DNA from: a plasmid
Direction: 5' to 3' (one strand)
Length of the DNA: 64,000 nucleotides
Assembly: GCF_058153355.1 (NCBI RefSeq)
Contig: NZ_JBLWLY010000002.1
Position 1 is the first letter of the stretch. Each line of letters opens with the position of its first letter. A program made the position numbers. Positions 58,901 through 61,900 of this stretch are shown here, one piece after another.

Positions 58901-61900
58901 GATAACGGAATTATCGTCGGTCGTGACAGACTGGCACGTCTTCGTAAGGAGCTGAGGCTGCACTGTAAGCAGAAACGCAAGTTCAGGGCGACCACAAACT
59001 CTGACCACAATCTGCCGGTTACGCCGAATCTGCTGAATCAGAACTTTACGCCCACAGCACCTAATCAGGTCTGGGTCGCAGATATAACGTATGTTGCCAC
59101 CCGGAAAGGATGGCTGTATCTCGCCGGCGTCAAAGATGTTTATACGTGCGAAATTGTCGGTTACGCCACGGGAGAGCGCATGACGAAAGAGTTGACGGGT
59201 AAAGCCCTGTTTATGGCGCTCAGGAGCCAGCGCCCACCTGCCGGGCTAATCCACCACTCCGAGCGAGGTTCACAGTACTGCGCATACGATTACCGGGTCA
59301 TACAGGAGCAGTCTGGTCTGAAAACATCAATGTCGCGTAAAGGTAACTGTTACGACAACGCTCCGATGGAAAGCTTCTGGGGAACGCTGAAAAATGAAAG
59401 CCTGAGCCACTATCGTTTTAAGAGCCGGGATGAAGCCATCTCAGTAATACGGGAATACATTGAGATTTTCTACAATCGTCAGCGTCGTCACTCTCGTCTG
59501 GGGAATATCTCCCCGGCAGCCTTCAGGATAAAATATTATCAGATGACTGCTTAGAAAAAGAACAAATGGTGGTGTCCGCTATTGCCAGTACACCTCACTG
59601 GCTGGTAGCGTTGTCGCTGAGTCAGAAATTTTTCGTTTGTTGACATCGTTACCCCTTTCTGAAGTTTACCGTCCCGTTGATATATTTATGGCGAACATCG
59701 TTACGTACAGGATGTAAAGAAAACGGTCGTTTTGTTTACTGCCTTTCAGGCCTCCGACAAAACAACAGATTTACAATCGTTTCGTAGTTAATATACTCGG
59801 TTAATATATCTATGTTAATATACTTGGTAAGGTAACAAGTTTTTTTACTTCTGAGGGATACATATATGCTGGTTGGGTATGCCAGAGTTTCTACCGACGA
59901 CCAGAATCTCAATCTTCAACGAGATGCCCTCAACCAGGCTGGATGTGAGCGAATATTCGAAGACCAACTTAGTGGTGCTAAAGCTGAACGCCCTGGCTTG
60001 TATAGTGCTTTACAGTATGCGAGAGCGGGTGACACTGTTGTGGTCTGGCGGCTGGATCGCCTGAGCCGTTCACTTAAGGATCTGATAGAAATGGTGTCGT
60101 TACTGGAGTCCAGAGGTATTGGCCTGAGAAGTCTTCAGGAAGCTATAGATACATCATCAAGTTCAGGTAAGTTAATTTTTCATATATTTGGTACACTGGC
60201 AGAGTTTGAACGTAACCTGATCCGTGAACGAACCCAGGCAGGACTCAAATCTGCACGGGCACGTGGTAAAAAAGGAGGGAGACCCAAGTCTCTTAGTAAG
60301 GACAAACAAGCCCTGGCTGTAAGGTTGTACGATGAAAGGAAGCACACGGTTACACAGATCTGCGAAATAATGGGAATTTCAAAACCTACCCTGTATAAAT
60401 ATATTGCAGCAGCCAAAGCCGGATAAACCCACATTCAAGAAATTACGGTTTCATCCTTTGTTCAGCAGTTGAAACCGTAAGTTTCTGTTCAAATGCCCCC
60501 GCTGGTCCATTATGCGATATGATTATGAATGGTGCAGTTGTGAGCCGTTTTCAGACAATCGCAGGGCCAGTACCTCGTCAGTCAGCTGACGGTAAATCTG
60601 CTGTTCAGTCTCACGCATCACCTGTGCACCGGCTTCCCTCTCCGCATCCGCATCACCGCTCAGACCTGATGCTTTCAGCCGGTCAGCCACCCTCTGAGGG
60701 TACTCATTCTCCAGCATCTCATATTTCTGCTCTTCTGCCTGCGCCCAGCGGTCAGCTTCCGTACGCTTCAGTACAGCATGCCATGGTCCCCAGAGGGAGA
60801 ACCAGTCCGTAAATTCATTCTCTTCACGGCTTCTGACCATGGCTTCGGCAGTGCGGAGGTCATTTGCTGTCACTCCCGACACGCCATAGAAACGCATTTC
60901 CTTCACGGCAGTGGAGAGCTGAAGTTTCTCTGCGAGCATGGTCTGGAAGGCCAGGTAGACTTCTATCTCATCCACAAAATGGAGAGTTCTGACTTTATCC
61001 CGGGCAATGTCCTCCAGAATTTCGAGGCGGAACATTTCCCTGCCCAGGGAGAGCAGAGCGCCGGTATCATTATCGAAAAGGCCTTCTGATGCCTGATGGA
61101 CCAGGAGGGTTTTCCGGAGATTGTTCCATGTGAGCGCGACACGGTCCTCACAGCTCTCAGTGGCATCAGCAGCAACAGCGAAAGACTGCTGTCGAAGCTC
61201 CGCAGAGGCACTGAGTTTTTCCAGCCATGCAGCGACCTGTTCACGGAATCCGGAGGTATTGCGTGCAGAGACGGTATCAGAAAGGCGGTCAATGAACGCG
61301 GAAAAGGTGTTGGCATGCTCTTCATGTTCAAAAGCATGCCATATCTGTGATACATCAGATTGTTTGTTTTCCGGGAACCATGCTGTTACAGTATCAGCCA
61401 AGGAGTGTTCTCTATGGGAAATTGTGGCAGGATTTCCCATAGAGAAAAATATTCGAGGACCAGAATAATCTGGTGCGGTGGTTATTTGTTGTAGTGTGCG
61501 CATGGTATGGCCAGACAATGGATTACCTGCAACATTTACGAAGGCATTCTGAGCTAATCTGACAACACTTTCCGGAAGTGTTGTCAGATTATTATTCATT
61601 AGCACAGCCCTGTTCATACTGAGAGGTAATTCTGGTAGTTGTTCTACAAAGTTATTAGCCAGAGCCAGCCCTTCAAGCTTATCTGGTAAGGGGGGGATGC
61701 TGTCTAATCTATTTCCAGAAACTATCAGTAATTTTAGCTCCGGTGGCAATAGTGGCAGAATATGCAATCGGTTATTATGGATCCGTAAATGAGTTAGAGT
61801 TTCAGGAAGATATGGTAATTCTTTTATCTTGTTATCACCCACATTAAGCTCTTCTAACGTCTCGGGTAAGGCAGGTAAGCTTTCCAGTTGATTAAATTGA

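Follow-up and report, generated by a model that had tools for sequence, protein, structure and literature searches.

The triplicated motif in front of a plasmid serine resolvase gene as probable accessory half-sites in the res of a truncated Tn3-family transposon

We analyzed a short motif, GTTAATATA, that occurs three times in front of a serine resolvase gene in a 64,000-nt stretch of plasmid DNA (contig NZ_JBLWLY010000002.1 of RefSeq assembly GCF_058153355.1), which we refer to as the window. Comparison with related loci makes it very probable that positions 59714-59848 are the 135-bp res of a small Tn3-family transposon, and that the three repeats are three of six half-sites for its resolvase, TnpR. 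The evidence for this lies in the position of the repeats, in the conservation and covariation of the half-sites among relatives of the element, and in the transposon that surrounds them.

An exact-match search of both strands of the window placed GTTAATATA on the + strand at 59787-59795, 59800-59808 and 59814-59822, and found no further copy on either strand. Shuffled sequence contained a mean of 0.42 copies, with at least three copies reached in 1 of 100 shuffles, and judging from these rates, the chance of all three copies clustering within 36 bp should be far below what the shuffle count suggests. The repeat unit also exceeds 9 bp, as copies 1 and 3 (GTTAATATACTCGGT and GTTAATATACTTGGT) agree over 15 nt. 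An earlier note on this DNA had described a triplicated 9-bp motif lying 36-80 bp upstream of a serine resolvase's start codon. The triplication proved to be real, with exactly three copies in the window, all just 5′ of the gene, and the position was roughly right, the copies lying between 79 and 44 bp 5′ of the ATG at 59866.

The gene itself was also as described, in that the open reading frame downstream of the repeats encodes a 186-residue protein matching the Pfam families Resolvase (PF00239, E-value 3e-48) and HTH_7 (PF02796, E-value 6e-13), and has a GAGGG ribosome-binding site at 59853-59857. These profile matches, along with an alignment to the Gin invertase, give TnpR an N-terminal catalytic domain with a serine nucleophile and a C-terminal helix-turn-helix. 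In this alignment, Ser9 of TnpR falls opposite the catalytic serine of Gin, a position occupied by Ala in crystal form 3uj3. Compared with proteins of solved structure, TnpR is closest to Gin (4m6f, E-value 2e-54), followed by the gamma-delta/Tn3 resolvases (~1e-29 to 1e-28) and Sin (8e-19), and it is 98.4% identical to WP_021573890.1, a protein encoded beside an intact transposase gene (tnpA).

We then compared the window with the upstream regions of further tnpR genes, taken from plasmids and 80 genome contigs. This yielded an alignment of 60 non-redundant res regions, each extending from the predicted crossover site (site I) to the ATG, from elements of Proteobacteria, Legionella, cyanobacteria, Chloroflexi and Bacteroidota with TnpR proteins 60-98% identical, and these regions align almost without gaps. 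We scanned them in a way designed to impose no layout model, sliding each element's own site-I half-sites along both strands of its region and averaging the scores per alignment column. Exactly four peaks emerged (z 3.4-4.9), of which three were on the top strand, at 59787, 59800 and 59814, and one, the sole bottom-strand peak, ended at 59848. At each of the four, the self-probe score lay above all 200 permutations in which probes were swapped between elements. Small peaks elsewhere were A/T-rich echoes offset by a few positions, and the scan gave no extra weak half-site above z ~2, whether a left partner for the bottom-strand half-site (m4) or inverted partners for the first two top-strand half-sites (m1 and m2). 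The features of the predicted res and its gene are as follows.

59714..59739: res site I, predicted crossover site, GTAAAGAAAACG-GT-CGTTTTGTTTAC, 12+2+12 with arms symmetric at 11 of 12 positions, from the comparison
59740..59786: 47-bp spacer from site I to the accessory module, conserved in length and not in sequence
59787..59799, + strand: half-site m1, GTTAATATACTCG, repeat 1 of the earlier note and proposed left half of a head-to-tail site II (scan peak 1, column 83, z 4.8)
59800..59813, + strand: half-site m2, GTTAATATATCTAT, repeat 2 and proposed right half of the head-to-tail site II (scan peak 2, column 96, z 4.8)
59814..59825, + strand: half-site m3, GTTAATATACTT, repeat 3 and proposed left half of a 35-bp inverted site III (scan peak 3, column 110, z 3.4)
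59837..59848, - strand: inverted half-site m4, top strand AAGTTTTTTTAC, - strand GTAAAAAAACTT, proposed right half of site III and tnpR-proximal end of res (scan columns 137-145, z 4.5)
59866..60426, + strand: tnpR, 186-residue small serine recombinase (resolvase), from Pfam and homology to transposon TnpR

The spacing of these elements is rigid. The step from m1 to m2 is 13 bp in 58 of the 60 regions, that from m2 to m3 is 14 bp in all 60, and the distance from the start of m3 to the end of m4 is 35 bp in 56. The spacer between site I and m1, with an information content near zero, varies between 44 and 47 bp, with 52 of 60 relatives at 45-46 bp, except in two Legionella copies (L054 and L063), where it measures 57 bp. 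As the Legionella spacers are longer than usual by ~11 bp, or one helical turn, the helical phasing of site I relative to the accessory module appears to be under selection. The half-sites also covary: in lineages of altered specificity (GTCCAA, GGCAA, GTCAA, GTGCG), site I and all four accessory positions change together, and where the half-site is not a palindrome (GTCCA, GGCAA), m3 finds its match on the top strand alone. By this computation, the dyad-symmetric crossover site is distal to tnpR and the accessory sites are proximal to it across the 60 relatives.

The earlier proposal that the repeats are a res site therefore held in part. The repeats coincide with three half-sites conserved in the 60 relatives and covary with site I, as would be predicted for resolvase-binding elements; however, they make up the accessory part only, and both the crossover site and the inverted half-site m4 had been missed. 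The fragment that had been put forward for a resolution assay, 59700-59865, encloses the entire predicted res. Separately, a degenerate fourth copy of the repeat (GTTGATATA / GTTGATATATTTATG) is present at 59676-59690 on the tnpA side of site I, outside the conserved res; it is not conserved in the relatives and does not fall within the aligned res.

Site I is the sole site of its form in the window, even when up to 3 mismatches are allowed (0 expected). Most relatives have the 12+2+12 palindrome 145-152 bp upstream of the ATG, and it is perfect in the copies from Pantoea, enterotoxigenic Escherichia coli (ETEC) p948 and Salmonella. Its core, AAAACG-NN-CGTTTT, is that of site I in ISXc5 and Tn5044, and it also resembles the hix and gix crossover sites of invertases. 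The predicted cleavage and overlap dinucleotide is the GT at 59726-59727. This central dinucleotide varies freely among the relatives, as expected for an overlap, and is GT in the window vs. CT in three 98%-identical copies (pEA24_2, pRM11911 and pBCE049). Since serine recombinase sites with differing overlap dinucleotides are mutually incompatible, the GT and CT variants should not recombine productively with each other.

The recombinase gene of the window is the tnpR of a decayed Tn3-family transposon whose tnpA was cut by IS600 after codon 16, as follows from the IS600 end on its left, the 16 remaining tnpA codons, and the right inverted repeat ending at 60508. The limits of the remnant are listed here.

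59576..59597, - strand: terminal inverted repeat of IS600 (IS3 family), exact match to TGAGGTGTACTGGCAATAGCGG, left limit of the remnant
59598-60508: transposon remnant, the right-hand 911 bp of a Tn3-family element, from the limits of similarity to other plasmid copies
59599..59646, - strand: tnpA remnant, first 16 codons (MSTNEKFLTQRQRYQP), divergent from tnpR, 16 of 16 residues identical to the transposase of Escherichia albertii pEA24_2
60472..60508: right terminal inverted repeat of the Tn3-family transposon, AAACCGTAAGTTTCTGTTCAAATGCCCCCGCTGGTCC, from the end of similarity in four plasmids and the intact copy

On the left, homology to the intact transposon begins at 59598, exactly where the IS600 terminal repeat ends, and matches to E. 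coli genome segments annotated as IS600 stop at about 59597-59612. On the right, the window and three other plasmids cease to resemble one another immediately after ...GCTGGTCC / GGTCC at 60508. The segment between these points has 98%-identical counterparts in a few plasmids of E. coli and E. albertii. One of these, E. albertii pEA24_2, has the recombinase gene divergent from that of a 986-residue Tn3-family transposase, with a 219-bp intergenic region between them, and the element is closed by 42-nt repeat arms that are 98% complementary, each comprising 37 bp of the inverted repeat and the 5 bp next to it. Those outer bases are a direct repeat, TATTA, of the kind left by the 5-bp target duplications typical of the Tn3 family, whose elements also have a DDE transposase of roughly 1000 residues and terminal repeats of ~38 bp. 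This intact element is 3,851 bp long and contains tnpA, res and tnpR only. The window retains from it the 16 tnpA codons and the right repeat along with res-tnpR.

From this anatomy, we infer how TnpR would bind, pair, act and be regulated at res. The six half-sites, with consensus GTWAAnAWA, would each be recognized by the helix-turn-helix domain of TnpR: two inverted half-sites would make up site I and would be followed by the 47-bp spacer, three half-sites in head-to-tail order and a last, inverted one. This number implies three dimers of TnpR, which would bind at site I, at m1+m2 and at m3+m4. Site II would then be the head-to-tail pair m1+m2, bound at a 13-bp step in the way that Sin binds its own site II, and site III would be the inverted pair m3+m4, spanning 35 bp. 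When two res copies are directly repeated on a supercoiled molecule, be it a transposition cointegrate or, as in this case, a dimeric plasmid, their accessory complexes would interwind and activate the two site-I dimers to form a tetramer, which would cut both sites at the central GT via Ser9, rotate by 180 degrees and religate, so that two circles separate. Accessory-site interwinding, site-I activation, serine cleavage, rotation and religation are established for resolvases (PMC2428073, PMC9943657). TnpR at the accessory half-sites would probably also repress promoter-like elements embedded there. Because promoter-like hexamers overlap the repeats on both strands (+ 59770-59797, - 59818-59790 and - 59830-59803; four found vs. 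1.5 expected), autoregulation is likely, by analogy with Tn3.

Several points weigh against this assignment. The pairing of the four accessory half-sites into two dimers is read from their spacing, and other occupancies are possible, such as m2+m3 head-to-tail or further degenerate half-sites. The binding and recombination of this particular element are predictions from sequence, and its TnpR differs from the copy beside an intact tnpA by R29, T110 and K184. Judged by E-values against the structure database, TnpR is nearer to invertases than to any studied resolvase. The aligned sequences are related, so that the permutation test overstates significance and should be taken as supportive rather than as a probability. 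Finally, the published res annotation of ISXc5 and Tn5044 shows site II as a conventional 40-bp box and site III as one of 30 bp, and the accessory half-sites of ISXc5 match its own site I poorly. The published boxes also speak for a canonical res of the Tn3/gamma-delta type, with all three subsites inverted repeats, which we consider unlikely. Site II would then run for 33 bp from m1 to the GTTAA(C/T) core of m3 read in reverse, with m2 as a mere centre, and site III would be short and weakly symmetric and end at m4, for example at 59827-59848 (GTAAGGTAAC-AA-GTTTTTTTAC). In its favour, GTTAAC is self-complementary, the TATG 5′ of m3 is conserved, site II at 33 bp would come close to the 34 bp of its Tn3 counterpart, and site III of SGI1 has been reported to be weakly symmetric (PMC12217951). 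Against this, m2 equals m1 both in conservation and in its match to its own site I (z 4.8 for both), m4 has no left partner, and m3 is a top-strand match only in the lineages whose half-site is not self-complementary. We had also tried to let m3, read on the bottom strand, close such a 33-bp inverted site on its right, and rejected this for these lineages and for the lack of a bottom-strand peak there.

The repeats could also be operators or promoter elements serving only the control of tnpR and tnpA and dispensable for recombination, a reading that gains from the promoter-like hexamers described above and from the overlap of res subsites with promoters in Tn3 (PMC7157771). We give it very little credence, as a pure operator would need no rigid spacing to site I, while the spacing found here, including its one-turn variant, suggests an architectural role, and known wild-type resolvases need accessory sites (PMC2428073, PMC9943657). 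Regulation by the repeats is in any case compatible with six half-sites forming a res, and does not exclude it. Less probable still is a DNA invertase of the Gin/Hin type, with the palindrome as one of two inverted crossover sites around an invertible segment. Gin is indeed the closest match among solved structures, and site I resembles gix and hix. Yet the window holds one such site rather than two, the gene is paired with a Tn3-family tnpA inside transposon ends, and a conserved accessory module is present, which invertase systems are not known to have.

The earlier note had further proposed that the resolvase and its site complete a native set for multimer resolution, partition and addiction together with ParDE (54444-55009) and parAB (55496-57417), both within 6 kb of res-tnpR. 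We regard the origin of res as a plasmid-native multimer-resolution site within this stability region as highly improbable, even though many relatives, such as those on Legionella plasmids, adjoin toxin-antitoxin genes and lack a transposase within 3.5 kb, and dimers are all that a lone res on a plasmid can act upon. A Tn3-family inverted repeat closes the segment at one end, truncated tnpA and IS600 at the other, so that IS600 parts it from parAB, and intact transposons carry the 98%-identical segment in plasmid surroundings that are unrelated. IncF-type plasmids of Salmonella, Enterobacter and Klebsiella share the ParDE-parAB block (54444-57417) at 93-95% identity, and in the best-matching plasmid, p24399, the same block is followed by umuDC, with no serine resolvase there. 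From this, we concluded that ParDE, parAB and the resolvase adjoin through mosaic assembly and share no common origin. Readings of the repeats as iterons, a centromere or parS were dropped as well, as, on unrelated replicons, the repeats are carried along with tnpR between transposon ends. It is nevertheless plausible that res-tnpR resolves plasmid dimers today, because any directly repeated pair of res is a substrate, and with tnpA lost, plasmid multimers would be the sole substrates left on the replicon. The functional idea of the earlier note thus persists as an unproven exaptation.

With this context established, we compared the res of the remnant with known systems. It is a new member of the ISXc5-like class of invertase-related resolvases and their res sites, and its closest experimentally footprinted relative is the res of ISXc5 (TnXc5), for whose footprint PMC7157771 cites Liu et al. 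(1998). Using Table S2 of PMC7157771 and the sequence of pXAC33, we found that the window shares with ISXc5 and Tn5044, which are Tn3-family transposons of Xanthomonas, the site I core and colinear accessory blocks, the order of tnpA or toxin-antitoxin genes, site I, accessory sites and tnpR, and the conserved blocks AATCAAAGTT and AACGAGTA at an equal relative distance (21 nt). The TnpR of ISXc5 is also invertase-like and is 55% identical to that of the window over 183 residues. It differs, however, in its length of 307 residues, owing to a C-terminal extension of ~120 residues; the ~310-residue resolvase with such an extension that marks the ISXc5 type is absent from the window, where the 186-residue protein aligns through residues 1-183 only. 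The half-site of ISXc5 has one more base (GTTCAATAAAACG), and the accessory copies there are too degenerate for a three-direct-plus-one-inverted layout to be read with confidence.

The accessory half-sites recall Sin, which acts at resH on Staphylococcus aureus plasmids. There, too, an inverted-repeat site I is followed by a spacer and by gene-adjoining head-to-tail half-sites at a 13-bp step (PMC2428073), a step found here in 58 of 60 relatives. Site II of Sin in an S. aureus plasmid reads cGTATGATTAGGG then TGTATATTAATTT, 13 bp apart and oriented as the left half of site I, and a Sin dimer has been crystallized on a head-to-tail site of this kind (PMC2428073). In contrast to the two accessory half-sites of Sin (one dimer), its 31-bp spacer bound by HU/IHF and its 86-bp res, the window has four accessory half-sites, a spacer of the ~46-bp class and a res of 135 bp, and so departs from the two dimer sites of Sin/beta-type systems. 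The two proteins are only distantly related.

With Tn3 and gamma-delta, the window element shares the divergent arrangement of tnpA, res and tnpR, a site I distal and a last site proximal to tnpR, six half-sites implying three dimers, and a long inverted accessory site (35 bp here vs. 34 bp for site II of Tn3). It differs in that the subsites of the 114-bp Tn3/gamma-delta res are all inverted repeats (28, 34 and 25 bp), whereas here three of the accessory half-sites are direct and the fourth is inverted, and two of the direct ones are proposed to form a head-to-tail site. Its site I is 26 bp rather than 28 bp, with a hix/gix-like A-tract, and by E-values its TnpR is nearer to Gin than to Tn3 resolvase. 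The likeness to Gin and Hin extends from this best structure-level match to the A-tract crossover half-sites in a 12+2+12 arrangement. Gin and Hin invertases use two inverted sites and a Fis-bound enhancer, unlike the single site and conserved accessory module found inside this transposon.

The res-tnpR module is not tied to one kind of transposon. We found it beside Tn3-family transposases only 20-80% identical to one another (28 loci) and upstream of TniA/TniB-type genes (18 loci), and at some loci there was no transposase within about 3.5 kb, often with toxin-antitoxin genes as neighbours. The module therefore appears to have been exchanged between transposon families. Settings of the TniA/TniB type (Tn5053/Tn402-like) were noted at L012, L014, L015, L055-L060, L066-L070, L074, L076-L079 and L083, and elsewhere the module adjoins Tn3-family transposases only 20-30% identical to that of pEA24_2. 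Marine gammaproteobacterial and Desulfuromonadales relatives carry, in addition, a conserved block of ~95 bp (…GACCGGGTAGCTGYGATAACCGCCAACTTTTT…GGCCCGGTGG…) between the last res half-site and the start of tnpR (L016 at about 3400-3500, also L017-L019 and L039); a search of Rfam with this block gave no match.

The clade of short Gin-like TnpR proteins thus occurs with diverse Tn3-family transposases, in TniA/TniB transposons and alone on plasmids. We tentatively suggest that it might use a third res architecture, neither Tn3-type nor Sin-type. In this architecture, and with the same reserve, a Sin-like head-to-tail site (13 bp) may be fused to a 35-bp inverted site, in fixed phase ~46 (or 57) bp from a hix-like crossover site. 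If true, and new at half-site resolution, this would be a natural intermediate linking the synaptosome designs of Sin, Tn3 and the invertases, and through the rigid 13/14/35-bp layout a connection between the Sin and Tn3 architectures becomes testable. The function of the element is otherwise ordinary, its layout of three tandem half-sites plus one inverted being the only mildly surprising aspect, and the basic understanding of site-specific recombination is unchanged by these results. What they do change is the annotation, as the resolvase and its site are the stump of an IS600-cut Tn3-family transposon and not a designed part of a partition and addiction block, although the stump could still resolve plasmid dimers. 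They also supply exact coordinates for the predicted crossover point and each predicted half-site, and the 60 aligned sites with their covarying half-sites are a ready specificity table for the Gin-like resolvase clade.

Beyond the transposon remnant, the window is a mosaic of segments resembling Shigella pINV and the IncF-type ParDE-parAB block, and no database record spans the junctions of this mosaic. An ipaH-like gene of 576 codons (60523-62253, - strand), of the leucine-rich repeat and E3 ligase type and about 97% identical in DNA to the ipaH genes of Shigella pINV, ends 14 bp past the right inverted repeat of the transposon, so that IS600 and a type III effector gene enclose the remnant. 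No record in PLSDB or among complete E. coli genomes covers this junction of IS600, transposon and ipaH. Exact copies of the IS600 terminal repeat occur four times in the window (4188-4209, 25540-25561, 52367-52388 and 59576-59597), so several copies or ends of IS600 are scattered through it. An open reading frame fragment at 63150-63437 (- strand) looks, by eye, like the C-terminal portion of a retroviral-integrase-type transposase and is probably another insertion sequence remnant.

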